The notes below the pieces were generated by a model. It ran no database searches, was not told the DNA's origin, and was given only the letters and a program-made list of their open reading frames with translations. The translations under genes and the position numbers were made by a program. Below, piece by piece: positions 1-31,734 of a stretch of 64,000 bases of DNA (positions within the stretch are counted from its first letter, which is position 1; each line of letters begins with the position of its first letter). Origin of the DNA: Octopus vulgaris (Eukaryota); NCBI GenBank assembly GCA_951406725.2, contig OX597823.1, positions 3,534,001-3,598,000 of the forward strand. The letters run 5' to 3'.

Positions 1-1424
1 ATATGGTTGGGAAGCTACTACTTAACCACACAACCACCTTTTACACACACACACACACACCTTTTCTAAAGCTTCAGTCTGTTTGAAATTGCTTTCACAT
101 TCTTGTACTCTTCTTCATTATTTTCACAATCACAATGTGATATACTTGGTTCTCAGTATGTTTTTTTTTTCTTTTATTCAAACTGTTTTGAACTGTATGT
201 ATGTGTATGGGTGCAGGTATAGTTGGTGTGGTAAGAAGGTTGCTTCCCAGTTCCATGATTTCAGGTTTATTTCCACTGTGTGGGACTTAAGGTTAGTGCC
301 TTCTATTATAGTTGTGGGTCAGCCAAAACCTCGTGAGTGAATTTGATAGATGTGAACCGAAAGAAACTGGTTGTGTATGCGAGTGTGTTAATGTTTCTTT
401 GCCTTGACATTGGGTGGTTGTTGTTGTTGTTGTTGCAAATTGAGTCACTGCCATGCAAGTGAGTGTCCTTCATTTCTGATCCTCTGTTGAAAGCATGTCT
501 GGTCAAATGGGGACATTACCTTACTTGGAAACAGGAAAGATGTCCAGCTGTAGAAAATCTTCTTCAACAAATTCTGTCTGAACACTGGAGGCAGTGAAAA
601 GTGGATGCTAAAACAATGATGATGATGGTGATTATTGAAGGATGTAATTAAACCAATCCTTTGAAGTACTGAGCACCAAACAAAAATATTTCAATGTACT
701 TCTATAATTCGTCATCACCTGCACAATGACTGCTTGTGTAAATATAAACATATGCTAGTGTACTGATGTACTTCATTATCAAAAGTTTCGTAAAAGAACC
801 ACTTATGGGTTCAATCCCACTGCACTGCACCTTTGTCAAGTGTCTTCTACTATGGCCCAGGCTGACCAAAACCTTGTGAGTGCATTTGGTTGGCAGAAAC
901 GTTAGAACACCAGGCAAAATGCTTAGCGGTTTTTCGTCTGCAGTTATGTTCTGAGTTTAAATTCTACCGAGGTCGACTTTGCCTTTCATCCTTTTGGGGT
1001 CGATAAATTAAGTACCAGTTATGAACTGGGGTCGATGTAATCGACTTAATCTCTTTGTCCTTGTTTGGCCCCTTTTGGGCAATAAAGAAATAAGAAACTG
1101 GAAGAAGCCCATCATGCTTCGTGCAGATACATCTTGGAAAGCCATATTAACTGAAGTATTTATCCTGAGGTTCTGCTTATAGATGTACTGTATTAAATAA
1201 CATTGAAATATTATCAGTAGCAGAAGAAACTCCTTTGGCAGTGGTATGGCTACATGTGCATTTCTGCCTCTTTTGGCTTTGTCAGCAGCATGTGCCCATT
1301 AGAAACTGCATGCTAAAACAGAATCTGTTGTCACTGATATAGGAAAACAGTGATTGAAAAACCACTAATGTTGCAGTTAGCTGGTCGACTGAATAAAAAT
1401 TTATGTGCAACAGAAGTAGTATTA

Positions 1425-2153
1425 TTTCTCTCTGAAAAGTTACAAAAGATATGCGGCCCATATGACATCAGGACGGTATTCAAGAGTAATACAACACTTC
1501 GCAAATATCTCCTTCGAGTAAAACCATCAATAGAAGAGAATATGACCAAGAACTGCTTGTATTCCATCCCATGCAGCTGTGGTAGGTTATACAAGGGTGA
1601 AACATGCTGTCCCCTCAAAATAAGGGTAGATGAACATCGCAAAGCTGTGACACGTGGAGATATTGATAAATCGGGTATAGCTGATCATGTATGGAAAACT
1701 GGAGACCACCTCCCCCTGTGGGATGAAGTTAAAAAAATAGACAGAGAACACCACTGGAAAATACGGAAACTAAAAGAAGCAGAACATATGCTAGGACACA
1801 ACAACCTCCTAAGTAGACCCAAGTGCAGATATGAGTAGCATATGGGAACCAGTATTAAGGAAGGATAGGAAAATATTAGATTTATAAGCCCTAAAATTCA
1901 CTCCATAATTGCCCACAGGCATATAGCTTAGTGGTTAAGAGTGCAGGTTACTAACCCCAAGATCCCGAGTTTGATTCCAGGCAGTGACCTGAGTAATAAT
2001 AATAATAGTAACATCGAAAAATACCTTAGGAATGAGAACCCAGGTTCGAAATTTCCTCAAGACACCTGATGAAGGCTGGAGGGTATATCAGCCAAAACAT
2101 GTTAACAACAAACACGATGTAAATAATTCCTCATCTCTTAAATATAGAACTGT
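1425..2153 (+). mobile_element. 5'-truncated Penelope-like element: GIY-YIG endonuclease remnant plus 3' terminal module (tRNA-like segment and hammerhead)
   Basis: ORF 1350-1838 contains LYSIPCSCGRLYKGET...RVDEH...SGIADH, typical of Penelope-like element (PLE) GIY-YIG domains with Cys/His ligands. It is flanked by a 13-bp direct repeat AGAAGTAGTATTA at 1412-1424 and 2154-2166. Confidence 0.88.
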
Positions 2154-2369
2154 AGAAGTAGTATTAGTTTAAAATAGCCATCTGTGTATTATACTTAATG
2201 CAGATATATCTTGGAAAGCCTAATTAACTGTGTTGTTCATCCAGGGATAATATCGCGTATCAATGTACGGTGTTGAATAACACAAAGCAGTGTTATGAAG
2301 AGCAGTGCTGGTACTGCTAGTCCTGGCATTTGGTCCTCAAACTAGGAACCTTGTGTAGAGTGTGGTTGT

Positions 2370-2722
2370 CTCAAAAAGAAATTGTGTTGAGGAAGATGAA
2401 AGCTTTTTGAAAACATTCATAACAGGCGATGACTCCTGGGTCTGTGACTATGACCCTGAAACCAAGGCAAAATTCAAATCCCAATTGTAAGGAGCAACAT
2501 TTCAAAACTTTGAGGAAATCCAAGAAAATCCAACGAGGTTGTTGCTTGCTATTCTCAAAAAGGAGTCCCAGGAAAGCTTTCCTCAATGGAAACAATGCTG
2601 GATAAAGTGTGTGGCTTGAGAAGGAGGGGGACTACTTGAAAGGAGGTTAAATGCCAAATTGGAATGTGTTGCAGTTTTGTTTTTAAAGCACCACTCCTGG
2701 TAGTTTTTAATCAGACCTCGTA
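2370..2722 (+). mobile_element. Internally deleted, degenerate Tc1/mariner transposon relic
   Basis: Fragments FLKTFITGDDSWVCDYDPETK (first catalytic D motif) and QWKQCWIKCVA*EGG. Ends in TIR-like ...TTTTTAATCAGACCTCGTA. Confidence 0.75.
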
Positions 2723-5700
2723 TAGAAGTGTCTGTCTATTAAATGTAGTTGAGAAGGTCATCGTATGCAGTTTCATTTTTAATTGGTCTGTTTGAGGTGG
2801 AGGAGGAGGAGAGAACGTTGCTCTCTTTGATAGAAATACAGAAACAACTTGATGGGGTTAATGAGTGAAATTATATATCCAGTTTAAATTACTGCTGATG
2901 AATAACGGGAGAAAATGAGGTGGCAAGCTGACCGAATCGTCAGCATACTGGGCAAAATGTTCACAAGGCATTTCACCAATCTCTGCATTCTGAGTTCAAA
3001 TTCTGGCGAGGTGGACTTTGCCGTTCGTCCTTTCAGGCTTGATAAAATAAGTACCAGTTTCGTGCTGGGGTTGATGTAATCAACTTCTCTCCTCCTCGAA
3101 ATTGCCGGCCTTGTGCCGAAATTTTAAACCAATAATTGGAGAAAATGGACAATAAAGGAGTTTCAGAAAAACAGTAAGATGGGTTGGACAGTGTTTAGGG
3201 TTTAGTGTAAATGATGAAATACAGGGGAGAGGGAACAAAAGGAGGAGGAGGAGGCAGCAAGGGTACAAGGGGGGGAGGTTATTGTTTAGCTCCAGGTCAT
3301 CTTTAACCCTTTTACACGTAGATTACTCAGTCAAATGTAATGCTTATTTATTTCAAATTGTTCTGAATTAATCATGCATTATCTTGTAGCTTGAGGTTAT
3401 TTTCAAATGGCATTGTAGGATAGGTGTGAGAGGCTGGATCTGGCCAGTTTGAACATGAAATGCATAGCAGAATATTTGGGTCGGATGTGCTGGTTTGAAT
3501 GCAGAAGGGTTAACAGATCAAGTTTTTGATTAAAGGTGTTGTGTTTCACTGGGAGCGGCAGGGAGTCAGCAGGGTTTAGAAAATGGAGGAGAAACTGCGG
3601 AGGCGGAGGTGGAGAGGGGGAGTAAGAAGATAAAGGGTCAACTGGTGATTATAGTGTTGTTGACAGTATATTAAGCTATCAGTATGGTGTGTGTGTGTGT
3701 GGTAGGTGCTTTGTTCTGGTTATGTGAACTATTAATTAAATATAATCACTTCAAATATTGTAGCTTCTGAGAGAGAGAGAGATGGGTTTGACCATCATGT
3801 TGTTGACTGTCTATTTTTGGTAATTTACGTAAGCCTCTACTTATGTTGCTCTTAACATCCGTCCACACAAACTGGCAACTTGGTCGCTTGTTCTTCATTT
3901 CAAGCTCTCCTCTTGACACTTCTAAACACTCCTCTCTCTCTCTCTCCCCCCCTGTACCCCATCCTCTCCGCACACATCCTCAGGTTCATGCTGTTTATTT
4001 GCTGCTGGTATGTGTATAATAAAAATGAATAATTAGTGTGCCAGATGCTCTTGTCATGGATTGGAAAGCACAGGCATGGCTGTGAGGATAAGAAGTTTGC
4101 TTACCACTCTTGTGGCCTCAGGTTCAATCCCACTGCATTCCACCTTGGGCAGATGTCTGCTGTAGATACAAACATGGCTGTGATTAAGAAGTTCACTTCC
4201 CATATAGTTTCAGGTTGAATGTCACTGTGCGGCAGCACTTTGAGCAGGTCTTCTATAACCCTGTGTTGATGAAAGCCTTGAGTGGATCCATTAAAAACTG
4301 AAAGAAACACACACACACACACATATATGCGTGCTTGTGTGTGTGTGTGTGTGCGTGCGTGCGTGCATATGAGTGACCATGTTTATGTGAGTTAGTATTT
4401 TCCTCCTCTTTGCGTGTGTTTGCTGGTGGCCTCCCAAGCAAACATTGTTGTTTGCAGTCCAGGCTTCTTTGTGGTCTGTTTCGTTTGGAAACCAGCAGGA
4501 GGTTGGCATTAGGAAGGACATAGAAAAACTATTCTCGTTTGACCCAAGCAAGCACAGAAAAATAGTCATTAAGATGATGATTGATTAAATTGTACTTCTT
4601 TCACAATTGGAGATTTTTCTGCCAATTTGCTCTGTTTTTTTTCTTCGTTTTATATTAACTCTTGACCATTTTTCTTGTAAAATAAATACATGAGTAACAA
4701 TTTATTTTGAAAGTAATGAAGAATTTATTAAAGTAGCTTTTTCATTCTGCTTGTTTTGGACCAGAACTTCACAGAAAGTTCTTATATAAAATAATGGTGT
4801 AATATTGGTATCAAATTTTGGCACAAGGCCAGCAAGTTCAGGGGAGGGGGTAAGTAGATTATATCCACCCCAGTGCTTAACTGGTACTTATCTTATTGAC
4901 CCCCAAAAGAATGAAAGGCAAAATTGACCTCAGCAGAATTTGAACTCAGAATATGAAGTCTGACGAAATACTGCTCAGCATTTCAGCCGGTGTGCTAACA
5001 ATTCTGCCTTGGAAATAATCATGTTAAATTATGAACTCTTTAATCTTTTTTGATCCCAACCCTTGTTCTATGATACCAATTCTTTGTTTTAAAGTGTTTT
5101 AAATTAAAAACCTCCCACTAAAATTTCCTGCTATTTTACTTTCTAATCACCAGCTTCATAATGTGACTAACCTCTTTGTTATTTTCAAGATGAATTGAAA
5201 AAAAAGATAGTATATTCCAAGAGAAATAGGGCAGTGAAAGGGATTAAGATGAGAGGTTTTGTAATTTAGACGTAGCAGTGGCCTCAGGTGTGTTCAGCAT
5301 CGTTCAAATTACCTTTTCTTTGTTCCTGACTGGAATCTAAATTTCTGTGGCAAGACAAGTGATGTATGATAGCAGAGGGGGAGTTGGTAGCCTGTTACTT
5401 GAGGCAAGATAACCAACTGTTGTGTTTTCTGTTGGGATAACACTGAGGATAGCTTAAACATTCTCCATATTATATTCTGTCTTTTCTCTTTGAATTCACA
5501 ATAGTGTTGTGTCTGCAGAAAGAAATCAATATTTTAGTGAAAACAAGGCGGCTGAATCGTGAGCATGCCAGGCGAAATGCTTAGCGATATTACGTCTGAC
5601 TCTCCTACACTCTGAGTTCATATTCCACCAAGGTCGACTTTGCCTTTTATTGACCCCTTTCGGGGTCAATAAATTAAATACCAGTTGTGTACTGGGGTCA

Positions 5701-6351
5701 ATCTAATCGACTTTCCGCCTCCTCAAAGATTTTGAGCTTTGTGCCTAGAATAGAAAAGAATTCTTAGCATGTGAAAGTAGTGAGCTGGTAGAAATGTTGG
5801 CAAAGTGCTCAGGGGTATTTCGTCTGTCGTTATGTTCGGAGTTCAAATTCTGCTGAGGTCAAGTTTGCCTTTAATCCTTTTGGGGTCGATAAATTAAGTA
5901 CCAGTTGTGTGCTACGGGTCAATCTAATCAACTGCCCCCCCCCAATATTTCTGGCCTTGTGCCTAAAGTAGGAAAAAAAAAATTTTGTGGAAAGAAACCT
6001 TGAAATTAACAAATCAATATTGATTATCATAGGCTTCTCCCCTAATACTATCAGATTACTTGGGTATGTGTATAATTTATATATATTTTATCTTGTTTCA
6101 GGCGTTGAACTGTGGCCATGCTGGGGGATTACCATGAAGGGTTTAATCAAACAAATGGACCTCAGTACTTATTTTAAATCTGGTGCTTATTTTATTGGTC
6201 TCTTTTGCCAAACTGTTAAATTATGGGGACATAAACAAACCAACACCAGCTGTCAAGCTTGGCAAATGCACACACACACACCCATGTGTATGAGATAAGC
6301 TTCCCTACAGCTTCTGTCTGGCAAATTTACTCACAAGGCATTGGCTAGCCT

Positions 6352-6785
6352 TGCATTCTGAGTTCAAATTCTGGCGAGGTGGACTTTGCTGTTCGTCCTT
6401 TCAGGGTTGATAAAATAAGTACCAGTTTTGTGCTGGGGTTGATGTAATCAACTTATCCTCTCCTCGAAATTGCCGGCCTTGTGCCAAAATTTTAAACCAA
6501 TAATTAAAGAAAATGGACAATAAAGGAGTTTTAGAGAAACACAGTAAGATGGGTTGGACAGTGTTTAGTGTAAATGATGACATACAGGGGAGAGGGGACA
6601 AAAGGAAGAGGAGGAGGAGGCAGCAAGGGTACAGAGGGGGGGGGTATTGTTTAGCTCCAGGTCATCTTTAACCCTTTTACACGTAGATTACTCAGTCAAA
6701 TGTAATGCTTATTTATTCAAATTGTTTTGAATTAATCATGCATTATCTCGTAGCTTGAGGTTATTTTCAAATGGCATTGTAGGAT
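6352..6785 (+). repeat. Local ~435-bp duplication of 2984-3421
   Basis: Near-identical sequence across the SINE tail, unique spacer and MITE left arm. Confidence 0.93.
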
Positions 6786-8604
6786 GCTTGCCGAAGGTGC
6801 CATGCAGTGGGACTGAACCTGAAACCATGTGGCTGCAAAGCAATGTTCTTGAACCTCTCCCCGCCTCTCCCTCTCTCTCTAGCTCATGTGTCATCCCCAG
6901 CATAGCAAGACAAATGCTTGTGTTGATATGATAGGTTGCTTGTAAATTCACCGTTTAAATGCCAACACTTGTGGAAGTGTTTGAGTCTTATTTAGCCCTC
7001 GGTCATCGACCCTCCCATCATTAGACAATGCATGAGGTTGCAACAATTTCTTTAATTGTTAGAAACGTTCGCACACGGGACGAGTATTTCATCTGTCTTT
7101 ACATTCTGAATTCAAATTCCACCAAGGTCGACTTTGCTTTTCTTCCTTTCGGGGTCAATAAATTAAGTACCAGTTGCATACTGGGGTCAATTTAATTGAC
7201 TGGCCCCTTCCCCCAAAATTTTGGGTGTTGTGCCTAGAGTAGAAAAGGTTATTTAACCCCTGGTCAGCATTGATGATGGAATGGGTTTCTTGTAATCTTA
7301 GACATTTAAGTATTTGGTTCCTTCTTCTGCTGCAAACGTTTACTCAGTTGGGTGTCCTTCTTGCTACGAACAATTCACCTCACATTTTGAAGCAAGTGGA
7401 GGAGTTTAGTGGGTCTTGGGACACGGCTGGATAGCAACAGTAAGATTTGAACTCTTCAGTGGTATTTATTTTACCGACCCTGGATAGGTGCACTGTAACC
7501 ACAGAGCCCCTTATTTTTATCTTGTCTTTGACTGTGGCCATACCGGGGCACTTCCTTAAATCAGGTGAATTGACACCAATACTTTTTCTTTTAAAGCCTG
7601 GTACTTATTCTGTTGATCTCTTTTGCTGAACTGCTAAGTGCAAAAAAAAAACCCAACATTAGTTGTCAAGCAGTAGTTCGCCCCCCCCCCCAACTGGCTT
7701 CTTTCAGTTTCTGCTTACCAAATCCATTCACAAGGCTTTGGTTGGCCCGAGGCTGTAGTAGTAGTACACTTGGCCAAGGTGCCTTGCAGTGGGACTGAAC
7801 CGAGAACCGTATGGTTGGGAAGGGAACTTCTTACCACACAGCCATGCCTGCACCCCTATCCATATTTTGGGTTCTACAACATGTACACTGATCAAGCAGT
7901 AGATAAATGTATATTGAGGCCATGTTGCTTGAAAAAAATCAAAATCTCCTGCTAAATGGCTAGACACCATTAGAAGACCTGAAGCTCTTCATGGGTTTGT
8001 GTTAAGAATACATATTGGAGATGAACCCCATTGCTGCACTGACTGGAAAGTGTCTTTGTCAAAGAGCAAGAGCTTCCATATTGCATTATATTGCACCTTC
8101 ATTTTATGAACTGCAACAGCATTTGGTCGGTTCCCAATGCACCAATTCCTGCGTCACTCTGTTTTTTATAGTAAGAGGGACTAGCGAATGTTATTGCCAC
8201 TTGGACAGATTAAATACCACAAGGTATTTTTTACTCAACATACTGGTTTTCCCACTGATGTTTACAATCTTTAGCCAGTATATCTGATATATATGTGCAT
8301 TAAATGTATATACAAACATTTGTTTATATATATATCATTATATTTTGGTCTTTAAAATAGATGTACTGTGTTGTAAACGAGGGACTAAAAAGAGTTAGTA
8401 TCATGGAGGATATCTAAGCTGTAAAACATTTAAACATCGCCCCCCCCCAACCCATTCCTGTCTAACCCATGCTAGCAAGGAAAAGTGGTCCTAAAAATGG
8501 TGATACAAACGCACAAATGTTTCTCATAGTTTCCACTTGCCAAATTTCTTTGTCTGTGAATAGGTCAGCTTTAGACTTATACAACATCTGTTCAGTTTTA
8601 TTAT

Positions 8605-8783
8605 TATTATTTACATTTGATGGATATTTGTCCTCATCTTGTTTGTTGTTAACACAATGTTTCGGCTGATAGACCCTCCAGCATTCATCAGGTGTCTTGG
8701 GGAAATTTCAAACCTGCCTGGGTTCTCATTCCTAAGGTATTTTTCGATGTTATCATCATTATTATTATTCATGTCACTGCCTG
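8605..8783 (-). mobile_element. Hammerhead-containing repeat, 5'-truncated (copy 2)
   Basis: Homologous to the module above. Core CTGATGA...CAGCCGAAACATTGTGTT at 8651-8696. Confidence 0.82.
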
Positions 8784-9389
8784 TATTATCATTATTATTA
8801 TTATTATTTAGACAGTGAGCTGGTAGAATTCTTATTCTGCTGGACAAAATACTTGGTGACATTTAATCCAGCTTTATGTTCTGAGTTCAAATTCCACCAA
8901 GGTCGACTTTGCCTTTCATCCTTTTGGGGTCGATGAAATAAGTACCAGTTACACACTGGGGTCAATGTAATCGGTTAGTCCCCTCCACCAAAATTTCAGA
9001 CTTTGTGCCTTTAGTAGAAAGGATTATTATTATTAAAAGTGTTGAACTGATATCATTTTGATATTCTTTATTATCCTTTAATGTTTTGAGTTTAGGTAAC
9101 AAGGAATCGGTTCCTGCGACTACACTTCTCTGCAAACTACTCTCTGTTGCTATTCAGCTTTTGTAGTATGAAAGATGTCTTTATAGAAAGACAATTCCTA
9201 GCACACACACACACACCACATGAAGATTTTTTTCATTTTCAATCACCATATTCTTGAGATATATAGTTTCCTTTCTTTTCTTTCTTTTCACAGTCCTTGT
9301 TATTTTATTGATAAATCTTCGATTCACCATTGTTAATAATCCTTTTTTTTCTTTTTTTTCTAACTTCTTGTTTCCAGTTGAGTAGCAAA

Positions 9390-9627
9390 ATGGGATTGCT
9401 GTGCCGGTATTATAAGCAAAAATATCCTGAAGTGGATGATGTGGTAATGGTGAACGTGCGTTCCATTGCTGAAATGGGGGCCTATGTACATTTATTAGAA
9501 TATAATGACATTGAAGGAATGATCCTGCTCAGTGAATTATCCCGACGACGTATCCGATCAATTAATAAACTTATCCGTGTTGGCCGAAGTGAATGTGTTG
9601 TTGTTATTCGAGTTGACAAAAACAAAG
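9390..9627 (+). CDS. EIF2S1: eIF2-alpha coding exon 1 (S1 domain, Ser51 loop)
   Basis: ATG at 9390 (AAAATGG). Translates [79 protein letters not shown]. Acceptor tttccag ends 9377, donor G|gtaggt at 9628, 238 nt. Ser51 codon TCC at 9540-9542. Confidence 0.98.
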
Positions 9628-15169: not shown

Positions 15170-15403
15170 TCTGTTTACATTATTTACATTTGACGGATAT
15201 TTGTCCTCATCTTGTTTGTTGTTAACACAACATTTCGGCTGATATACCCTCCAGCCTTCATCAGGTGTCTTGGGGTAATTTCAAACCTGGGTTCTCATTC
15301 CTAAGGTATTTTTTGATGTTATTATTATTCAGGTCATTGCCTGGAATCGAACTCAGAATCTTGGGGTTAGTAGCCTGCTCTCTTAATCACTACGCCATAT
15401 GCC
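15170..15403 (-). mobile_element. tRNA-headed hammerhead-containing repeat (copy 3)
   Basis: Homologous to 1918-2153. A-box TGGCGTAGTG and B-box GAGTTCGATTCC on the minus strand. Confidence 0.85.
15224..15269 (-). ncRNA. Putative minimal type-I hammerhead ribozyme (best-preserved copy)
   Basis: Minus strand reads GACAC-CTGATGA-A-GGCTG-gagggtatat-CAGCC-GAAA-TGTT-GTGTT: conserved core boxes, a perfect 5-bp stem II and a 5-bp stem I. Confidence 0.75.
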
Positions 15404-15587
15404 CGTTCCTCCATCTTTCAGAGGAGAAGGAAGTGATACGCCAGGAGATATGACCCTTGAAACTGAAAGTGTCTTGACAAAGTTTGTTGAAAACCTCCTG
15501 GGTCATCTTTTAATTCTGATCTGTTTGAATAACAACAGCATTATTAGATCAATCTTTGTCTGAGCCTGTTTGTTGTTCTGATTGTAG

Positions 15588-18264: not shown

Positions 18265-18606
18265 ATTGTTAATACAACATTTCGGCTGATATACTCTCCA
18301 GCCTTCATCAGGTGTCTTGGGGAAATTTTGAACCTAGGTCCTCATTCCTAAGGTAGTTTTTGATATTGTTGCTGTTAAGATTGCTACCTGGAATCGAACT
18401 CTGAATCTTGGAGTTAGTAGCGTGTGCTCTTAACCACTACACCATATGCCTGTGGGCAATTATGGAGTGAAATTTCCCCAAGACACTTGATGAAGGCTGG
18501 AGGGTATATCAGCTGAAATGTGTTAGCGACAAACAAGATGAGGACAAATAGCCTTCAAATGTAAATAATATACATAATTCCTCATCTCCTCAATATAGAA
18601 CTGTAC
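18265..18606. mobile_element. Inverted pair of hammerhead-containing repeats (minus copy ~18265-18476, plus partial copy ~18469-18606)
   Basis: Two oppositely oriented segments of the same module joined at the palindrome GAAATTTC. Confidence 0.85.
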
Positions 18607-19587: not shown

Positions 19588-19731
19588 ATCAACTTAATTG
19601 CTCCTCCCCTCTATGTAATGACCACCCAGACTCTAGAGAAGGCTGATGGCCTGCGTGCTCTCACGAATGCTACCAATGTTGTGAAACAGGCCATCGAGAA
19701 TATGGGAGGGATGTTTAACATGCAAATGGCT
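19588..19731 (+). CDS. EIF2S1: eIF2-alpha coding exon 6
   Basis: ttttag|...|gtaagt; INLIAPPLYVMTTQTLEKADGLRALTNATNVVKQAIENMGGMFNMQMA; 144 nt. Confidence 0.97.
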
Positions 19732-21939
19732 GTAAGTTTGAAGTTTCTATTGCTTTAGATTTGCGTAGAATTGGTGAAGTGAAGGTATTGTGTTTCTGGA
19801 TCAGAAGCTACAACTGACTACATGGCTCACTTTGCCTATTGGTTAATATGTTGTGCCACTTTGATGATCTGCTGGGACTGAAGGTAAGGAGTTGGCCCTG
19901 GGCTTGGGCTCCTGGTTCTGTTGTTATGAGGGGGTAAAACAAACAACAGACAGAAGACATTCTATGAAAGTCTTCCAAACTAATTGTTTTCCTTCTGTAA
20001 GAAATGTTTAATTTCGTAAAACGTTTTGTGTGGATGAGTTGACATATCGGAGGAGGAGAAATTTTTAAGATCTTTGTTAATGAGGAAGCAACATGACAGG
20101 AAAACAAAACAAACGAAAAACAACTAAATCCGTATTTTCTGTGCCTCTTCTTCGTTGCTCTGATGTAAAAGTCCAATCGTTATTCTTGCTTTGATGAATC
20201 TAGAAATGATTATCTCCCTTACAATAACTAACCACCACCAGGGGGACACAACAGAATGATAATGGGAAATTTAATCCTTTGCATCTGAGAATATATTTTA
20301 ACAGGTATGATTTCATTTGACTTATTCACCTGGAAGACACAAAAATGGGGCAGCAACACGGTTTTGTGCTTATACCTCCTTATTTTCAACTGTAAACACA
20401 ATCCCCTGACCATTCTCTAACAAAATCCTGCCTTCTGAAGCATACCTGTGGGCTGTCTTCTCCTCTCTCTCTCCCTTTTTACTCCTTTCACCCAACCATT
20501 CTGGCCTCTCTGCTGTAATCACTTTCTCTCCTGGGAAGAGAAAGACTAGACTTGCAAAGCTCATCTAGTTCTGTCTTGTTGACAATTTACCCATCTCTCT
20601 ACAGTTGGTGCCACCTCAAGGCACACTGTAAAGTGGTTGGTGTCAGAACAAGCATCCAACTTCAGAAACCAAGTCAAACGACATGTATGAGCGCCAGTGA
20701 GAAACAACTTGGTGTTGGCTACTCATCAAGTGCATGCTGGCATAGCAGGTGTACACAGGTATATGTATGTATATCATTTAATATACAGGTGTGGTAAGAA
20801 GCTTGCTTCTCAACCACATGGCACCTTGAGCAAGTGTACTCTACTATAGCCTTGTTCCAATCAAGACCTTATTTGGTAGACAGAAACTGAAAGAAGCCTG
20901 TGTGCGTGTGTATATATGTATCCGTGTCTTTGAGTCTGTACCATGACTTAGCTGTTTGGCAAAGGTGACTGATAGAATACATACCAGGCTAAAAAAAACA
21001 AAGAACGTCAGGGTTGATTTGTTCAGCTTAATACCCTTCAAAAGGGTACCCCAGCTTGGCCACAGTCAAATAACTGACAAGACAATATTTAAATAAGAGC
21101 TAATAGTTCCATGCCATGGAACTGCAGTGATTTGGCAAAACTTTGTACGACATAGCTTGTGACCTGAAACAATCCTTTGGACCCAAACGCACATGGTTCT
21201 GACCCCGAAGGATTGCTTGGAGCCATAAGGCCTGTTATATAAGTCTTTAGAATTATTGTGTTTCCATTGCCTGAAACTATCGGTAGCTCATATTTAAATA
21301 CTATGTATATTAAATTTTATCTCTCACTGGATGGCCGACCTTACCTGTAATGGAACAGTAAACTCTATTATATACATACAGAAATATTGAGGGAGGAGCA
21401 TGGTCGATGCCAGCACCACCTGACTGGCTCCCGTGCCGGTGGCACGTAAAAAGCACCCACTACACTCTCTGAGTGGTTGGCATTAGGAAGGTCATCCAGC
21501 TGTAGAAACTTTGCCAGGTCAGATTGGAGCCTGGTGCAGCCTTCTGGCTTGCCAACCCATGCCAGCATGGAAAGCAGACGTTAAACGATGATGATGATGA
21601 TATATGTGTATATATATTTATAAAAGTGTACTGTTTCCATGAGGCTCTGGTCGACCTGGGATTATGGTAGAAGATACTTGCCCAAGGTGCTGCATAGTAA
21701 TGACTGCCTTAGAAACCAGATTGTTGAGAGGCAGATTGCTTCAGCAGATATGTCTGAGCCTGTGTAAATCATTTCAGAATATTTTCAATAATTAACTGAA
21801 TTATGAGCATTTTCTGACTTGATTAGTCTCTTTAACGATATCATGGGCCCTTGTTAGGAAGTGCCAGGATTTGAACCTGTCTGTCGATACGTTAGCTTGT
21901 GTCTGTTTCGAGCCTTAAGAACTTCTTTGTTAATTGCAG

Positions 21940-22080
21940 CCGAAAGTTGTTTCCGATACTGATGAACTTGAGCTGGCCAAACATTTGGAACGCCTGGAAG
22001 AACAGAACCAAGATGTGTCTGGGGATGAGGATTCTGACGAATGTGGTGATGGCAGCGGAGATGAGATTACAAAAGAATAA
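21940..22080 (+). CDS. EIF2S1: eIF2-alpha terminal coding exon 7 (acidic tail, TAA stop)
   Basis: ttgcag|[46 protein letters not shown]. Summed CDS is 957 nt = 318 aa. Confidence 0.96.
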
Positions 22081-23947
22081 ACAACAAAACAGAAGAAGAC
22101 CTCAAAAGACAATTCATTGGACAAAGAATTTGACATTTTGTTTTGCAATCATGGACATACAACTGCCTTGTATATGCTCCAAGTCAAATAAAAGAGAAGC
22201 TGGGAATTTTTTCAAAACCTTTAATGATAAAAATTTGCAAAAGTTCTTTCTTTCTCTTTCCCTCCTCTCGTCTGGTTTTGCTGAATGAAACATTTCTTGA
22301 TCCAGTTTCTTTTTTTTTTTATGGTATTTCTGGTTCCGTGGCAGCTTTCAGGTATTTATATTTGGATTCGTAACACACACACACACACCCATTCATGCCA
22401 ATCCATGGATTGAGTTTTGTTTTACTGTGAACAACATCTGAAATAGTTTCGTTTAGGGAAATACGAACCCTGATTGCCAGCATTCAACATAAATTGACCA
22501 CTTTATAGCTTTTTGAAACTTCATATTCCTTAAACTGATCGCAGACATCATCCTACCAAGAGGACTGTCCCGGCTCTTACATGTATGAGTTGCCTCCCCT
22601 CATCCAGTTGAATATTAGAAATTTATGCACCGAAGCAAGTTTCTCTTGATGACAAATTTAATTTCCAACGGATTCTGCACATAAATTAACCTGGAATTTT
22701 AATGGCAAATTTCTATTTAGATCACTTTGACAGGGACTGTCTCGCATTGATTGGTATCAAAAGGGCTAATGGTGAAATGTAAATTTCTTCAAAAATATTT
22801 CAAAGTCTTCAAATTAGAGATTAATTTTTAGATCCAAACTAAAGGGTAAATGTTTCAAAATTCACTTGAGGCTATTTTTGGCATAAATTCTTTCATAGAA
22901 CCAGTATTAGTGTTTCTTTTGACAGTTAAATAGAATTTCTTCAGGTTGGGTTAAAGGAAAATTAAAAACACCAAAAGTTCTTTGTTAACGAAAAAAATTT
23001 TTTAAATTTTTTATTTCTATTAAAATATTAAATTATTACTAAATGAGGGAAAAATAAATGAATTTCAGTTTTGATGTCCACAGTTGCAGTGAGATTGAGC
23101 AATGAAATACCTTCCCACCCCACTTAAGAATTCTTCCATATTACAAGACCTGGTTACTAGAAAGACTAATATAAATACCCCTCTTTTATCACCAACCTTA
23201 TTATTTCTGTTGGTAACACAACAGACACCTGGCATTCCTACTCAAAATTCAAAAAGTTTATTCTTCTGTGAAATGTCATTGAGCAACATTGGATAAAGGT
23301 TAATTAAATATTGCAGGTGAGTATTTTCAGAATGTAATTTTTTAAAATCCAATCAAATTTGAAAGTTGAGTGAAGAAAGAGAAAGACATTACTAAATGCT
23401 TAATCTAACAATTCTTGGAATGTTTTTTCAAAAACATGGACAAAACGTCCATTTCTTTTTTTCTTTTCCTTTTTACTGGAATGTTGATTTTAAAAAAAAA
23501 AAAATTTATCTTCATACGAAAAATCTAACAATTTTTTCAATCAGAAAACTCGATTAAAAAGTGTTAGGGTTGGCTGCTAACCTGTAAAGGACTGAAATGA
23601 TATGTACAGTTGACTACAGAAACTAACAGGGGTTTAATTTCAAGAGGAAACAAAAAAGGAAATGCCAGACACTGCAAAGCTTCATTCTATATACAATTGG
23701 TTCTGAAATTATTATTAATGGCTTAGTTAAATATATAATTCAAAATATTAGACCCCTTTTTTTTTTTTTTTTCTCTTGTTCCCACTTGAAACAACCATAT
23801 CAAGTTGTTTCACCCATTTTCTTTGACCCCAGACAATACATTGTCATAATATCTTCGAGGAAAGAGAGAGAGAGAGAGAGATATAGATATATATACATAC
23901 ATATATAAATACGAAAGCACATTGAAAAAGTAAAAGTCTGTCAACTG

Positions 23948-24180
23948 CTATACATCATCAAAGATTCCTCTGGGCGGTTTGTGGCCCGTTCTTGTTACTG
24001 AGCTGTATCTAGGTGGAGGTTGCGACTGCTGGTAACCCGTGGCAGCAGTTGTGTTGTGATGGCTAATGTTGATATAATCTTCTAAATTGTCAGTAGCTGT
24101 ATCTCCCGTATAATCGACTGGATCAGCTTGGCGCAGAAGTTCAGTTCGATCGTTTTCATCTGGACTCCGAGGGATTTTAC
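23948..24180 (-). CDS. LMBRD2: LMBRD2 terminal coding exon 12
   Basis: gtttag|(G)KIPRSPDENDRTELLRQADPVDY...PPRGIFDDV* with TAG stop. Summed CDS is 2145 nt = 714 aa. Confidence 0.92.
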
Positions 24181-25419
24181 CTAAACAAAAATTGAAGAGG
24201 CGGAAAAAAACAAAATCTATAGTAATGGCTGATGTATGGGTTGACTCACTGATTTCTTCAGCCACACTTTATTAATCTCTTTAAGAGTGAAGAGGTGTGT
24301 TTTACAACTTTCAGAAAAATGCACTTTAATGAAAATTTTTAGAGATAGGTTTGCAGAGAAGCAGATTGTGAGGAATTATTCATAGTTTTAGTCACTGGAC
24401 TCTGGCCATGCTGGGGTACTGTTTTCAAGGCCTTCATTCAACAAACCAACCACAGTGCTTATTTTTATAATCTCATTTACTAATCCACTATTTTACAAGT
24501 ACATACCTTTATATATATATTTATAAAAGATGATTTTACACCCACAAAAAGTGAGTATACATAAATTCATTCGTATATGAAAAAACAAAATCCGTAAATG
24601 TGATTAAGGTACAAGTATCTACATCACTTGTCTAGTGTAATACAGACACACAAGGTGTGTAAATATCCTCCTGTCTAGGGTGAATCTGACTAAAGGGTCA
24701 TGGATCCCTACTTTACTCCCAACAATGTCCCCTTCCTTAATCCTTTCAACCTGTAAGCCAAGCTTTAGCTGGTGCAGTTTCCTTTCAATATTTCTGCAAG
24801 ATGCAAAAGTAGGCAGTCGCATGGTTTCTGTTTTCTGTGCGTCACTAAGTGGCAGAAACGGTTTTGTATTTTCAGCTGTGGCTGTCCACATTTATTTGTC
24901 TTTTATAGTCAAACGAAATCACATCCACTAAACAGCATGGTCATGTGCCCAAAGGATTCAGTTCTACTGGTTCTGTTGTTTAACCCTGGGTCAGACTTGA
25001 TGGTGCAAACTGATGATTAAAAACACTGTGACCAGCCCATCTGTTTAGGGGTTTTCAGGACAAAACTAAACAGTGTGTCTATTTGCTGAAGATTTTGGGA
25101 TGTAATTTGAGGGAGATTTGGCTGCTGCTATTTCTAAAATAAATTGAAGGACTTTTTTGTTGGCCCATCTATACAGGAGCACTGTAAGTAACAACAGGTG
25201 TTTTGTTAATGAGGAGTATGGCATTCAAATCCACCTGTTTTTGAAGACCAACCCTACAGTGGTGACCCCCTAAAACCAGGTTATGGGACTCCCAATCAAC
25301 AAACATCTAAGAAATGTGTTAAGATGGCAAAAATTCAGGAAACATGCCCCTCCCCCTTAGGAAATCTAATTATTGTGTTGTTCATAATTTCTGACAATGT
25401 GTTTGGAAGAAATCCTTAC

Positions 25420-25524
25420 CTCTGCGAGGACTTTCGGAAGATGATGGTTTAATGCCACCAAACTGGTCATTCCACATTTTCCGACGGGCTTCTCCATCAG
25501 CTTTTCTTTCTCGACGTCTCTTTT
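25420..25524 (-). CDS. LMBRD2: LMBRD2 coding exon 11
   Basis: ttttag|(E)KRRRERKADGEARRKMWNDQFGGIKPSSSESPRR|gtaagg; 105 nt. Confidence 0.92.
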
Positions 25525-26883
25525 CTAAAAAATGTAGGATAAAATATAAACAGGAACTTCTCAGTTAAATACTGACAAAATAATCAGTTAACATGTCCTT
25601 ATATTTTTCGAACAAGGACACAGATCATGTCACATAGCCAGCTGGAGATGATGTCTCCTGTGGTTAAATTACAGCAACATTCGTCCTAAACCAGGACTGC
25701 ATGTTATGTTGGCAAACAGTCTTTACTCCAAAGTACTGTTACTGAATATCTCATGTTGTGAGATTTAAAAGTAGTAATTTTCTAAATCAGTTAACATGTG
25801 ACTTTTTAAAAACCATTTTTCTGTCGAGTTTTTCAATATATTTTCATATTACTGCAGGTGAGATAATTCTACAGATTGATAGTTTCATATAAGGTCATTA
25901 ACTCTCTCAGACCTACACCGCTGCATCTAACTTTACCCTCCACCTGGGCTCTTGAGAAATAAAAAAAAAACCCAACAAAAGTTGCATATGCAGCTAATCT
26001 CTAAGCCAGACCCATCTGAGGTGCAATGCAGACTCTGATGAAATTGTCCTGGATGCATTTGTCCAGTGTTTGACAACCTGTGAAGTTATGTCAAACAATG
26101 TTACATGTAAAACAAATCTAGCTATTAGCCAAGTCCATTGTGAAGATCATCCCACCACTTTCCTTTGCCTGGGAAGGACAGGCAATACTAATCGATCTGG
26201 TGGCTTTAATGAAATAGGCTGTGTTGTGAACAAGATTGAAAGGGGCTGAAGACCAGATACTTTTCTCTTTGGCCAAGCCCTCGTTAACTTTTTCAGGTTT
26301 CATTTGGAAAGTGAAAGGCAGACGAAAGCAGCAGACCTGATCTGAGTCTGTGCTTACATTAAAGTGCCTTGGCGATCCCAGTCACTGTGGTTTTGTGGGT
26401 TTCCCTCTTTTTGGAAATTATTTGAAATTTATTGCTTCTTTGCAATTCTCCTTCATGTAATCGCACATTGTATCATCCTGTCCCGTTCCTAATGTTTCTG
26501 TCAGCTTGTTAGTGATAAATTATTATTATTAAGGTAGCAAGCTGGCAGAATCTATGTATCAGACAAAATGCTTAGCATTTTGTTCTGAGTTCAAATTCTG
26601 CCAAGGTCAACTTTGGTACTAAAGAGGATGAAAAGCAGTTACACACTGGGGTTGGTGTAATTGCCAAATGCCTTCCCCTAGAATTACTAGCCTTTGCCAA
26701 AATTTGAAACAATAATTATTGTTGGATACATAGGATTAAAGATGGGGTGAGATGATGCCAGCTGTGGTGAAAGCAAAAAAAGTTTTTAGTAGGAGAGGAA
26801 TAGCACAAAGATTATTCCTTTACATTTTTGTTGTTGTAAATCTCCAGTATTATAGGGATATTTTTGCTAATCAACAAACTCAC

Positions 26884-27085
26884 CTCTCCTAACGAGTTCC
26901 TTGCCTTCGTCAATGAGTTCCTGGGTCATGTCATCATCACCAACAAACTGCTGAAAGCCAAGGAAGTGAAGAATCCGACTGCCTAAACTGAAGTAGGTAC
27001 ATATACAGAGCAGAACAATAGCAATGGGGAAATATATATTGAAACCGTCAGACACAATAGCAATCACATCCATATGACCCATAAT
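26884..27085 (-). CDS. LMBRD2: LMBRD2 coding exon 10
   Basis: tttcag|[20 protein letters not shown]...[26 protein letters not shown]|gtgagt; 202 nt. Confidence 0.95.
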
Positions 27086-28664
27086 CTGAAAGAAACGAAA
27101 CAGAGAAATATAGGATTAGCGATAAGAATCTCCATTTGTAATCAGTGAGAGAGCAGGGTACAGATATATGAGGCCTGACACCCATTGGGACTACCTGTCT
27201 GATAAGGGTACACCACAACCATATGTGTGCAACATGGTGATCTCACATCAAGACAAACAACATATGACCTTGCAGGTGGGACCCAGTTAGAATTTTCTTC
27301 AGGTTGAATAGCCCATCTCGCTCAAAAGGTTTGTTAAGGATGATGAACGAAACTCCCATGTTTCCAGAGGTAAATTATTCAAACACCACAAAATTCCTCT
27401 CAACACATGGCTTTGATGCTCCCCAATTACTTCTGCTTGTGGTCAGAGATGCACATATTGTCAGCCACTAAGGGACGTGCTCAACTGGTTACGGTCAAAC
27501 AACTGACTGAGGTATTGAACAGAATATTTGCTGTAACCCATCTTTTATACCAAGACAAAACAATGTACATGACATCAGAAGCCAACACCTGGTACTGCAT
27601 CAGGGCATTTATTATCATTATTATAAAGACTTGGCAGAATTGTTAGAGTGCCAGATGAAATACTTAGCGCTATTTCACCCGTCGCTAGGTTCTAAGTTTA
27701 AATTTCGCCACGGTTGACTTTGCCTTTCATCCTTTCAGGGTCGATAAATTAAGTACCAGTTGATCACTGGGGTTGATGTAATCGACTGGCCCCCTCCCAC
27801 AATTTTCAGGCTTTTTGCCTATAGTAGAAAGGATTATTACTATAATGGTGGTGAATTTTATAGAATTATTAGTGTTGAAATAAATGTCTCACAGTATATT
27901 TGTTTTGGTTCTTTAGTTTTGAGTTCAAATCCCATTGAAGTCAACTGTTCATCCTTTCGGGGGCCAATATATATAAAGTATGAGTTAATGCCAACAACTT
28001 TGAGAATGTAATGGGTGCTTTTTAAGTGCGTCCGGCACACATATATATATATGCGTAAATGTTCTGAGGAGGGTGACTGCATTTGGGGTAAATGGGGCAC
28101 AAAAGCGAGGTAGACCGAGGAAGAGATTGGGTGGGTTGGTTTGAAAAAGGAGCATGCCCAAAACTGGGCATGATGGCGTGAGGGTGGTTGCTATGGCACT
28201 GAAGTAGATCTGGCCATCCCCGTTAGCGGAGGCAAAACCTGGATTTAAAACACTGGATGATGATGACAAACACACAGAATGGGTTTCTTCAGTTTCGGTC
28301 AAGGAGATCTACTCACAAGGCTTTGGTCAATCCAAGGTTATAGTAGAAAATACTTGTTCAAGGTTTCATGACTGGGATTGAACCAGAAACCATGTGGTTG
28401 GGGAGTAAACTTCTCAACCACACAGCCATGCCTGCACCCAGCCACTTTTCTTACAAATATAACATTATATAAGATTGATAAAGTTTTTCTCTGTCGTATA
28501 TGTGTCAGATTGTAAGAGAGAGCAGCAGGTGGTGAGACATCTAACTCATGCCAGCATGAAAAATGTGGAAGTAAAATTAATGATGTTAAGTTCACAAAAC
28601 TATTTCTGTTCTAACAGCATGTGGGAAGTAGTTAGAAATAATTAAATAAAGCAGTATTTCTTAC

Positions 28665-28773
28665 AGTTGTGTAAGCTGTTTCCTCAAGATTATTGACGTG
28701 AGTTACATGGCTGTCCAAATGGATCAAACCAAGGAAATTGAGGCACAACGGAGGTGTTAATCGACAGAGCATC
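28665..28773 (-). CDS. LMBRD2: LMBRD2 coding exon 9
   Basis: tttcag|[36 protein letters not shown]|gtaaga; 109 nt. Confidence 0.95.
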
Positions 28774-28857
28774 CTGAAAAGAAGTGAGAGCAACAGTAAA
28801 TAAAAATAAGGACAAGAAAATACATTCAGTGTTATAGAAGTACAACGTTCTTTTATG

Positions 28858-29240
28858 CTTTTACTGGTTTTGGTCACTTGTCTGTGGCCATGCTGGAGCA
28901 CCGCCTTTTAGTTGAGCAAATCGACCCCAGGACTTATTCTTTGTAAGCCTAGTACTTATTCTATCAGTCTCTTTTGCTGAACTGCTAAGTTATGGGGACG
29001 TAAACACACCAGCATCGGTTGTTAAGTGATGTTGGGGATACAAACACAGATGCACAAACATAGACACACACACATATACGATGGGCTTCTTTCAGTTTCT
29101 GTCTACCAAATCCACTCGCATGGCTTTGGTTGGCCCAAGGCTATAGTAGAAGACATTTGCCCAAAGTGCCACGCAGTGGGACTGAACCCAGGACCATGTG
29201 GTTGGTAAGCAATCTACTTACCACACAGCCACTCCTGCGC
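28858..29240 (-). mobile_element. tRNA-derived SINE family B, full length (another at ~60645-61033; many partial copies)
   Basis: Head GCAGGAGTGGCTGTGTGGTAAG...GGTTCAGTCCC, a CORE-like TTGGGCAA(G/A)TGTCTTC segment and an internal CA/TA microsatellite. Confidence 0.85.
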
Positions 29241-30721
29241 CTTACCAAAATATTTTATGGAGGTCAATCAGACTTGCAGTTACTCAAAACAAACCTCAAT
29301 CACATCCGTTTTAGAAGGGCCTTCAAAGGATGGCGTGAGGTACTTACTCTTAACTGAAGCATTCTGCCAGAAGAACAGTCTATGGCATTGGCAGAAACTC
29401 TTAGACTCTTAGTGAAATCAATGTTTCATTTGATCAACTGTTAGGGGAGGGGGAAGTTGCACAGAAAAGAAAGGAAATCATTAGATTAAGGTTTAAGGGG
29501 TCAGACAGAGTAGAGGTGATATAGTGTATTAGGGGGAGTAATGTATGTGTGAGAGAGAGAACTGATACATCTGTGAATCAGTGGTTTTAGCAGGTTTAAT
29601 GAAAGAGTGTTCGTCAACAAATTTCAGAAATGGTTTGGGAGTTTGTGTACAACATAATTTCAAACAAATATGTGAGCAATATTGCGACGTGGGCCTTACT
29701 TGAGCTTTGTACAGGGCCAACAATCGATCAAAGTATATTTGTAGCCATGAAGAGGAAACTTTGTTTTTAGTTGTGCTGTGAGGTCACAACGACAAAACCT
29801 TAATGATTCTGAACCTTAGTATCTAGCTCTCCCCAACCTCAACCCTTATCCACCCACCCTTCCTGATCTTCAATCCCTACACTCTCTCCTCTTTACCTTC
29901 ACATACCCTGTCACTTGGTCTCCACCATCTTTAGCTCTGTGTCCAGCTCCACCTCAATAACGTACCCCACCCTTACGTAATGCAAAGCAGCCATAACAAC
30001 AACAAACCCGTTCTTGTCCCTTCTATTATATTTTTATCTCTCACTTTCCTTTCTACCATGCCCCTTCATATTTAAGGGAGTTCTTTAGTCCAGCAAGGTA
30101 CATGGTAAACTCACTAGTGCTGGTGCCACTTAAAACAGCATCCAGCACTGTAGAGTGGTTGGTTTTAGGACAGGCACCCAACATCTAATCCATGCAGACA
30201 TGGAAAAATAGACCTTAGAATGGTGGTGATGATGGTTCATTGTTAAAACAGATACAGGGTTGGGAGGAATATTATAAGATAAAATTTGAATTATGTTTAA
30301 TACAGTAAAAACAATGTGGTTAATCCTTTAGCATATAAACCAACCATATCCAGTGAAAATATTGTTTTATGCTCAAATTAGCCAGATCCGGCCTCTCACA
30401 CCAATCCTACAATGTCAGTCTAAAAGAATGTAATCACATCAAAATCCCAAAGCTACAAGATAATCCATGATTAACTCAAGACAATATGAATAAAAAAGCA
30501 TTACAACTGACTGCTAAAGAGTTAAATAACAGTTATGTTGTTTCAAGATAACACGAGAATATTGCAGGTATTAGAGTATGGCTTTATAGTTTGTAAGTGA
30601 ATCCATGGTTCTAGTATTCTAGACTATGTTTTGTGTTTATAAATGCATTCATTGTATAAGAAGAGGAATCTTTAGATTTTGGGAGGGGTTTTGGTTTTGT
30701 TAAGAATTTGAGAAGACTTAC

Positions 30722-30855
30722 ATTCCAGTAAAGATCAAACTGTATTCGTTGGTTTGGTGGTGAGGAGCAATGTAATAGTAGTTGAGGATGCGGATTTGAA
30801 ACACAGTGTAGTAAGCACAGAAACACAGGAAGCCAATCGTCAAGATGGAGGTCAG
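30722..30855 (-). CDS. LMBRD2: LMBRD2 coding exon 8
   Basis: ttccag|LTSILTIGFLCFCAYYTVFQIRILNYYYIAPHHQTNEYSLIFTG|gtaagt; 134 nt. Confidence 0.95.
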
Positions 30856-31048
30856 CTGGAAAAGAAGAAGACAAACATAAACAAACAAACACTGCAGAGA
30901 GAGAAAGAGAGAGAGAGAGTTGTACGATGACAACATATTGACTGAGAAATTCAGAATAATCCGATTTGTAATTATTTTCAGTTTGAAATAATATGATTGT
31001 AACAGTAGGAGATGAAATAATGTGTTTCATGAGAAGTGAGGAGTTGTA

Positions 31049-31299
31049 CAATTCTATATTGAAGAGATGAGGAATTATTTACATTTGACGGATATTTGTC
31101 CTCATCTTGTTTGTTGTTAACACAACACTTTGGCTGATATACCCTCCAGCCTTCATCAGGTGTCTTGGGGAAATTTCGAACCTGGGTTCTCATTCCTAAG
31201 ATATTTTTCAATGTTATTATTATTCAGGTCACTGCCTGGAATCGAACTCGGAATCTTGGGGTTAGTAGTCTGGTCTCTTAACCACTACGCCATACGCTC
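31049..31299 (-). mobile_element. Stand-alone tRNA-headed hammerhead repeat with 13-bp TSD (copy 5)
   Basis: GTGAGGAGTTGTA at 31036-31048 and 31300-31312. The element starts at the tRNA-like head. Confidence 0.88.
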
Positions 31300-31734
31300 G
31301 TGAGGAGTTGTAATTTGCAAACCTTGCAACAAACATTACCTGGTTACATGGATCCAGGTGAATTTTGAAAGATTGAAATGAATCACTTTGCAATGAATTT
31401 ACTTTTATTGCGCTAGAAGTAGCAGCCAGAGCTTCCTCAAATCGCATTCGTTCAACACAGACAGGTGAGTCTTGACTAGAAAGTTATACAAATAAAATTG
31501 CTGTCTGGTCAAAGAGGAAATAAATCCAGTCGTTTAACATTGAATGTTTGATAGGTTAATTAGTTATGACGGTATATTTTCACTGGCATGATCATAGAGT
31601 TACTCTAAGGAGGTACTTCTAGATTATTCCTGCAGTGGCTAAGTATCTATAAAAACCATTTAATCCATATTACTATGTGAAAAAACTAAAATTATTATAA
31701 GATGCTCAGTGTATACAACAGAAACATTGTTAAA

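Follow-up and report, generated by a model that had tools for sequence, protein, structure and literature searches.

The window, i.e., the whole 64-kb stretch of octopus DNA analysed here, contains pieces of one repeat at six places, with 88–97% identity to a family consensus built by script. The preliminary description had reported a module of about 250 bp occurring six times; the six pieces are indeed present, but head, hammerhead and both hairpin arms occur together only in the copy at 31048-31299, which is the single intact one. Copy 1 lies on the forward strand and starts, behind its left 13-bp target-site duplication (TSD, 1412..1424), with the 5'-truncated and frameshifted 3' end of a Penelope ORF (1428..1887, stop codon at 1885-1887). 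This ORF end shows 92–94% identity to 39 other genomic places. Its frame was described as GIY-YIG-type, which is supported by the similarity to Anolis protein P0087 (E 4e-15), while the Pfam search of the endonuclease pieces gave no match, GIY-YIG included. A 29-nt spacer common to ORF-linked copies (1888..1916) leads from the stop codon to the tRNA head of a pseudo-LTR (pLTR, 1917..2153), which comprises the A box (1924-1934), the B box (1968-1978), (AAT)n, a start codon at 2032, the hammerhead (2061-2103) and the long 3' end; the first hairpin arm is deleted. The right TSD (2154..2166) matches the left one exactly.

Copy 5 is a complete solo pLTR on the reverse strand (31048..31299) that begins at the tRNA +1 position. 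The A box (31282..31292) and the B box (31238..31248) are collinear with a host tRNA-Arg and are followed by the ATG opening the family ORF (31191..31193), a minimal type I hammerhead with core, extra base, stem II and palindromic stem III (31119..31164), and a tail hairpin with a 9-bp stem (31065..31107) that spans the short 3' end point. The copy is flanked by its 5' TSD (31300..31312) and 3' TSD (31036..31048), the first base of the latter being common to the element's end. The 13-bp TSDs reported for copies 1 and 5 are both exact, and among 1000 random flank pairs only one gave a match of at least 12. The remaining pieces are incomplete. The headless one at 8600..8783 (reverse strand, unit 60-233, short 3' end) is joined at the (AAT)n tract. 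The head-start pLTR at 15176..15406 (reverse strand, unit -3 to 227, short 3' end) stops short of the second hairpin arm, and no TSD was seen around it. The two pieces at 18266-18605 are a single head-to-head insertion, whose left arm (18266..18475, reverse strand, unit -25 to 184) carries the head and the 3' spacer and stops just past the hammerhead, and whose right arm (18469..18605, forward strand, unit 121-260) carries the hammerhead, hairpin and long 3' end without the tRNA head.

The comparison of genomic copies identified the module as the pLTR of a Penelope/Poseidon-type family. This family is abundant, its pieces numbering tens of thousands in the genome; most of them consist of the pLTR only and start at the head. 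The consensus unit of 2,643 nt comprises a 259-nt pLTR, an 835-codon ORF for reverse transcriptase (RT) and GIY-YIG endonuclease and the 29-nt spacer. The ORF is a single consensus reading frame that opens inside the pLTR (unit 105) and continues through the hammerhead; the module belongs to the element as its pLTR, holding its start codon, and is not a separate unit. At 27 of 30 loci, 25 of them with the head sequence, the endonuclease end runs directly into the module, and a pLTR end lies immediately upstream of the ORF in 23 of 30 loci. Copy 1 is therefore not a special or one-off fusion of a SINE with a Penelope element, as the head occurs family-wide. pLTRs on both flanks of the ORF and partial tandems are both present in the family. 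The RT matches Pfam RVT_1 and is 44% identical to an 836-aa Anolis protein, which we take to be PAc and to which the ORF's C-terminal end also aligns on the GIY-YIG side; this identity and the domain order point to the Penelope/Poseidon group. A relative, P0009 (58% identical), has the same N-terminal peptide overlapping the hammerhead.

The insertions carry the marks of Penelope elements, as had been suggested for the short copies. Among 86 hammerhead-anchored insertions, 55 are head-to-head, and 40 of those 55 couple a long and a short end, which differ by a one-sided tail of about 30–40 nt; the best TSD calls are of 12–13 bp in 14 of 19 cases. In a test of fold-back from a single template on only 38 pairs, the arms of one locus shared 14 of 187 variants, compared with 3.1% across loci, a weak excess. 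Penelope elements are already known for mirror-image pairs, for a one-sided tail of 30 nt and for the minimal hammerhead. Penelope/Poseidon elements (PLEs) such as Anolis PAc are described, in the portions of the papers available to us, as having one ORF of about 835 aa for RT with a C-terminal GIY-YIG domain (PMC11167929, PMC8557442, PMC4209133). The octopus family resembles PAc, as presented there, in this ORF, in a pLTR that overlaps with the start of the ORF, in a pair of 3' ends separated by about 30 nt, in a mirror-image truncated neighbour, and in a minimal hammerhead whose stem II is preceded by an extra base and whose stem III is palindromic.

The core and stems of a minimal type I hammerhead, for which cleavage is predicted, are present in the pLTR, so that inspection upheld the hammerhead on which Rfam was silent. 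A core variant at the free N7 position is inherited in 27 of 177 arms, and 12 related loci repeat the layout with another stem II. As judged from its sequence, the hammerhead is the ordinary dimer-type ribozyme of the family and not what sets the copy ends. The idea of a retrozyme was not supported: the copies do not take their ends from the hammerhead cut, and retrozyme-like tandem arrays are rare, 84 of 86 insertions being single or head-to-head and same-strand tandems occurring in a few loci only.

The front of the pLTR is derived from a tRNA. The best match of the head is the host tRNA-Arg(TCG), with which it is collinear, with a score of 64 in a comparison with a host tRNA set (RF00005) in which only some isotypes are represented; this score was reached by none of 300 shuffles, and the best of 124 control windows scored 46. 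The A and B boxes are intact and of consensus type, and the tRNA stems are broken. ARAGORN made no tRNA call, either in the window or at any of 60 loci, and Rfam matched neither a tRNA nor a hammerhead in the window and one copy; the proposed tRNA-like head with its boxes is nevertheless borne out by the alignment, and the proposal of a Penelope element with a tRNA-type Pol III promoter holds at the level of boxes and tRNA-Arg match, use of the head by Pol III being probable. Other SINE families of the window did not match the head (scores up to 48), and upstream of the 11 related hammerheads checked there was neither a B box nor a tRNA-like head.

A sharp peak of 5' ends at the head, a test set beforehand, was found. 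Exact 20-mers of the head occur 5,148 times genome-wide, compared with 1,073 for a 20-mer located 70 nt upstream (4.8-fold), and 42 of 55 arms reaching +30 end within -25..+30 (14% expected), in samples mostly from one contig (C1) and taken with exact-match anchors, which favours young copies. Exact-motif anchors were adopted because a random sample of 760 kb, made up of 76 stretches, contained no more than 17 pieces, spread over 10 of the stretches, which was insufficient for end mapping. Copies extending into the ORF also begin at the head in five of seven cases, whereas two of seven ORF-start copies read through from an upstream unit. Such tandem read-through speaks for an alternative in which the head is a passenger and the peak arises from palindrome-driven template switching or fold-back of the RT, or from a coincident Pol II start. 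A short palindrome is located at the head, a mirror neighbour accompanies 80 of the 99 head-start arms, and the TATA-less internal promoter of Drosophila Penelope, as far as the available text goes, offers a precedent (PMC2377424). Moreover, the (AAT)n linker is the site of a second pile-up, which takes in 20 of 93 anchored arms and indicates that sequence features alone can produce peaks. However, the head peak persists in single-arm insertions (9 of 14 end at the head, P 2e-5) and is centred on tRNA +1: among 19 arms without a mirror neighbour, eight start at -4..0, four of them exactly at +1. The boxes are of consensus type although the tRNA stems are broken, and the sense strand lacks TTTT, which makes a passenger head unlikely. 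Stopping of the RT at a modified T-loop base was rejected, as no end peak lies near unit 58.

The clustering of ends at the mature tRNA +1 position would also fit cutting of a long Pol II transcript by RNase P at the tRNA-like head, with the cut RNA as template. RNase P recognises the acceptor and T stems, yet these are partly unpaired here, no cloverleaf is predicted, and the ends spread out to -20; we regard this origin as highly improbable.

The preliminary description had proposed that solo head-start copies are an independent, non-autonomous SINE lineage that borrows the Penelope protein. Head-start copies exceed ORF-linked ones about 4–8 fold and carry their own TSDs, and among the best 30 matches to copy 5 none has ORF sequence upstream within 1.5 kb. 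The solo pLTR contains both the putative promoter and the RT start region, so it could serve as a source. On the other hand, the 103 head-start and 69 ORF-linked arms are not told apart by any inherited position; five differences reach p<0.01, and these lie at a CpG, at the margin of the (AAT)n linker or at the short end. Both forms of the unit 62 and 143 variants occur in both classes (62A in 43/138 vs. 28/68, p 0.16), the consensus is common to both, and solo copies retain the start codon and the in-frame 9-nt tail repeats. Divergence was 5.8% for head-start and 8.0% for ORF-linked copies, which would make the former the younger, but this figure is biased by anchoring. A separate lineage is thus improbable. 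A LINE-derived tail, named beforehand as counter-evidence to the proposal, is absent, the 3' part of the module being the PLE's own ORF start.

We consider it probable that the module is the pLTR of a coding Penelope-like element whose tRNA-derived front acts as an internal Pol III promoter and sets the 5' ends of most copies. An ancestral element would have acquired a tRNA, or the head of a tRNA SINE, immediately behind its stop codon. Pol III could then initiate at the head of any pLTR and meet no terminator within the unit; the element's RT-endonuclease would bind the hairpin region, begin copying from either of two internal positions and proceed back to the 5' end of the RNA. A 3' or solo pLTR as the source would yield SINE-like copies of 230–260 nt, and a 5' pLTR would yield copies from head to ORF.

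The sense strand of the 2.6-kb unit contains no TTTT, while none of 27 related ORFs of at least 500 codons is free of it. Given the codon use of the ORF itself, the lack has a P of 0.023, and against low-T relatives 0.03, overall about 0.002–0.03; it is only moderately significant. GGGG is likewise absent from the unit, and an RTE-like family here is also poor in TTTT. In three raw RNA runs, read depth on a near-full copy tracked copy number, with neither strand bias nor a start peak at the head, a readout of little weight, since short non-polyadenylated RNA may escape such runs. The further step, that Pol III transcribes the whole 2.6-kb RNA of a coding retrotransposon whose ORF has been purged of terminators and whose terminal repeat doubles as a SINE, is offered as a tentative possibility.

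The tRNA SINEs OR1, OR2 and OK were reportedly described from octopus by Ohshima and Okada in 1994, and OR1/OR2 are said to originate from tRNA-Arg. The octopus module and the three have a tRNA-derived head in common and probably come from the same group of animals. OR1/OR2 have been termed CORE-SINEs (PMC4824008, PMC4758252, PMC5804259), and, going by these descriptions, identity is unsupported; a CORE domain would not fit into the module. With regard to SINE2 elements, a tRNA head and head-start copies were found; a distinct lineage and a LINE-derived tail were not. TRIMp3 elements (Cassandra, Helenus, Ajax) are presented in the available part of the source as non-coding LTR elements of 0.3–1.3 kb with coding partners argued to require Pol II (PMC10886601). 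They likewise have a Pol III promoter of small-RNA-gene origin within the terminal repeat, whereas the octopus head sits in the terminal repeat of a coding element, a PLE with a 12–13-bp TSD, unlike the non-coding TRIMp3 with PBS, PPT and 4–5-bp TSD. The SINE-like Schistosoma repeats Sm-alpha/Sj-alpha also have a Pol III promoter followed by a hammerhead but, in the text available, are non-coding, often tandem and freed by cleavage (PMC6765202); the octopus unit belongs to a coding PLE, is dispersed as mirror pairs and extends across the cut site. Animal non-LTR retrozymes, according to the accessible text, are PLE derivatives with non-coding hammerhead units related to pLTRs, likely mobilised by PLE proteins and defined by head-to-tail tandems, which are rare in the octopus family; tRNA, Pol III and promoter are unmentioned in that text (bioRxiv 10.64898/2026.07.22.740005). 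Within the available literature on Penelope elements, we found no description of a tRNA-derived head opening a pLTR, and Anolis PAc and other Penelope/Poseidon elements, as presented there, differ in the A/B-box head, the 5'-end peak and the TTTT-free unit. To that extent, the head is the undescribed part of the octopus element, and the insertion marks and hammerhead are the known part.

To our knowledge, transcription of Penelope elements has been worked out for a single fly element, and the usual assumption is that coding retrotransposons depend on Pol II. One 260-nt construct would give access to two questions, namely, whether an autonomous retroelement can be driven by Pol III and whether a Penelope terminal repeat, and not a LINE tail, can be the origin of SINE-like elements. 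Annotators should be aware that most copies resemble tRNA SINEs yet belong to a Penelope family. If our reading is true, the octopus element would be LINE and SINE in one, and would offer a route to Penelope-dependent SINEs and to Pol III-hammerhead repeats such as Sm-alpha.

All six pieces of a single repeat placed in the window by the preliminary description were confirmed at their positions, although only the last is a complete module. Mapped to a script-built family consensus (unit positions counted from the tRNA head), copy 1 at 1428-2154 (+) covers unit -489 to 260, a headless piece of the pseudo-LTR (pLTR) at 8600-8783 (-) covers 60 to 233, and a head-start pLTR at 15176-15406 (-) covers -3 to 227. 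A single insertion formed by a head-to-head pair lies at 18266-18475 (-) and 18469-18605 (+), joining unit -25 to 184 with 121 to 260, and the complete solo copy is found at 31048-31299 (-; unit -4 to 260). The 13-bp target-site duplications (TSDs) claimed for copy 1 and for the 31048-31299 copy are both perfect matches.

The module is the pLTR of a protein-coding Penelope family. The search of the Octopus vulgaris genome (227 contigs, 2.8 Gb) with the endonuclease piece yielded 30 loci; the module lies immediately 3' in 27 of them, the window copy among these, and the head sequence is present in 25. With the N-terminal part of the ORF, 30 loci were likewise obtained, of which 23 carry the module 3' end immediately 5' of the ORF and three carry the entire module there. 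At consensus level the unit spans 2,643 nt, with the pLTR at 1-259 and a single ORF of 835 codons running from the ATG at unit 105 to 2612, followed by a 29-nt spacer and the next head. Pfam matched the RT domain, and the endonuclease is alignable to an Anolis protein. The ORF continues through the hammerhead sequence, and the N-terminal peptide over it is shared with a relative of 58% RT identity; the ORF of Anolis PAc also starts inside the ribozyme (PMC11167929). Frequently, the (AAT)n linker has expanded, or another retroelement residing in AAT tracts interrupts it or is joined to it (genomic stretches L041, L048, L241, L202, L240 and others). A second, distantly related Penelope-like family (28-39% identity) is represented by fragments at L112:5748-6124, L112:9367-9636 and L353:47-415.

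The exact hammerhead 28-mer occurs 3,631 times in the genome. Among 86 insertions taken from the first 93 matches listed, all on one contig, 55 were head-to-head pairs, 29 single and two of other types; in 40 of the 55 pairs one arm had the long end (about 260) and the other the short one (about 227-233), and the TSD was 12-13 bp in 14 of 19 best calls. Penelope-like elements (PLEs) are known for mirror neighbours and a one-sided tail of 30-40 nt (PMC8557442), ascribed to two internal RT start sites (PMC11167929). In a random sample, 17 pieces were present in 10 of 76 10-kb stretches, which extrapolates to ~18,000-68,000 insertions. The family is also present in contigs from runs coded organisms A-E, with those from A and D spanning the junction of ORF end and head.

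The hammerhead consists of the core, one extra base, a stem II of 5-6 bp, a palindromic stem III lacking a loop, and a stem I of 5 bp, and it fits the minimal dimer-type ribozymes described in PMC4209133; Rfam gave it no score. The sole inherited core variant, in 27 of 177 arms, affects the free N7 position. The same layout with a differing stem II sequence occurs in 12 of 80 related loci of other eukaryotes, some of which represent one family. Full copies span the predicted cleavage site after unit 174. Starts at 173-178 make up 9/40 of those in 140-205 (P 0.009) and 9/29 of those in 167-205 (P 0.026), pooled over non-random loci, and this cluster is a weak hint of hammerhead cleavage. As the ATG is 5' of the cut, the ORF would be intact only in uncut or circularised RNA.

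The tRNA-like head was borne out: the A and B boxes match the consensus at a spacing of 33 nt, and the head is collinear with host tRNAs over its full length. The best of 35 sequences was tRNA-Arg(TCG) (score 64, z 7.7, 0 of 300 shuffles; at most 46 in 124 control windows), a tentative parent because the comparison set held some isotypes only. Pairing is incomplete in the acceptor, D and T stems, and no tRNA was called on the head by ARAGORN. Eleven related hammerheads could be assessed, and none had a B box or a tRNA-like score above 43 within 200 nt of upstream sequence; the other SINE families of the window did not match the head.

The sharp 5'-end peak at the tRNA head, proposed earlier as a test, is present. 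Of 55 anchored arms reaching +30, 42 end within -25 to +30, against 14% predicted from the upstream loss rate, as do 9 of 14 single-arm insertions; starts at -4 to 0 were found in 8 of 19 arms without a mirror neighbour, four being exactly at tRNA +1. Across the genome, exact 20-mers number 5,148 for the head versus 1,073 for one 70 nt upstream, and a 22-mer over the pLTR/ORF junction occurs 104 times. Of seven copies that include the head and continue into the ORF, five begin at the head (4/4 from 40 stretches and 1/3 in the other set, this one copy extending to unit 1168); the other two are read-through from the unit upstream. The 5' ends peak again at the (AAT)n linker, owing to joins with other AAT tracts, and therefore 5' peaks are not necessarily transcription starts. 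Seven of 40 pLTR/ORF-junction copies (L464, L468, L472, L475, L479, L488 and L489) start at unit 213, which lies within the tail repeats of 9 nt, close to the short 3' end.

On the sense strand of the consensus there is no TTTT run, versus 30 on the opposite strand (P 0.023 with the synonymous codons of the ORF shuffled; 0.003-0.007 under looser nulls). TTTT is present in each of the 27 related ORFs of at least 500 codons, and its absence has P 0.03 at the rate of the five lowest-T relatives and 0.002 at that of nine low-T ones. GGGG is absent as well (P 0.3), and TTTT is likewise low in an RTE-like family of the same genome. As evidence, the lack of TTTT, the Pol III terminator, is no more than suggestive. 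In three raw RNA runs, depth on a near-full copy was equal in both directions and tracked copy number, with no start at the head, a pattern that weighs neither for nor against Pol III use. The sequence data show the anatomy, the marks of insertion, the derivation from a tRNA, the peak of 5' ends and the lack of terminators; that the promoter is in use has fair indirect evidence.

Other repeats were also recorded in the window. An abundant minus-strand tRNA-headed SINE family (28858-29242, 60646-61032 and ~10 shorter copies; tRNA score 51-58) may have a CORE-type body and may be identical with OR1/OR2. A second abundant family of ~200 bp, with a B-box-like motif and unrelated to the module, is found at 891-1093, 27609-27855, 40235-40459, 47695-47909, 62815-63047 and elsewhere. 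A third, which contains tandem units internally and terminates in (GAT)n in the manner of a LINE tail, lies at 21396-21630, 36114-36384, 45262-45492, 46221-46614, 52572-52921 and 60174-60549. MITE-like copies of ~230 bp, whose ends resemble short inverted repeats, occur at 42831-43064, 54499-54731 and 58072-58302, and a 460-bp local duplication (91% identity) at 2961-3421 and 6331-6785. The stretch 62699-62740, beside a SINE, resembles the U2 snRNA 5' end (Rfam U2, E 0.018, under the gathering score) and probably represents a pseudogene or a partial copy.

The literature search, which extended neither to Repbase, Dfam and SINEBase nor to most subscription journals, found no PLE headed by a tRNA or a Pol III promoter; the family may therefore already have been annotated. 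The available parts of the octopus repeat papers (PMC13282606, PMC8967140, PMC6962438) tabulate Penelope and SINE totals and do not mention such a structure. The nearest systems, as far as the accessible sections describe them, are Helenus/Ajax/Cassandra (PMC10886601), whose coding partners must use Pol II according to their describer, Sm-alpha (reviewed in PMC6765202) and retrozymes as pLTR derivatives (bioRxiv 10.64898/2026.07.22.740005). The kind of element is known, and it is the promoter arrangement that is undescribed in the literature covered.

We propose that Pol III would initiate at the tRNA head and that the PLE protein would begin copying in the hairpin region and continue to the 5' end of the RNA, mirror pairs arising from two such cDNAs or from fold-back. 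Such an RNA would be uncapped, and Pol II read-through of tandems may supply the protein. The free-standing ribozyme SINE of the preliminary description is unlikely: a single consensus describes 103 head-start and 69 ORF-linked arms, and variants at unit 62 and 143 have similar frequencies in both classes. The short copies therefore look like ongoing by-products of the coding lineage, for which solo pLTRs could be additional sources.
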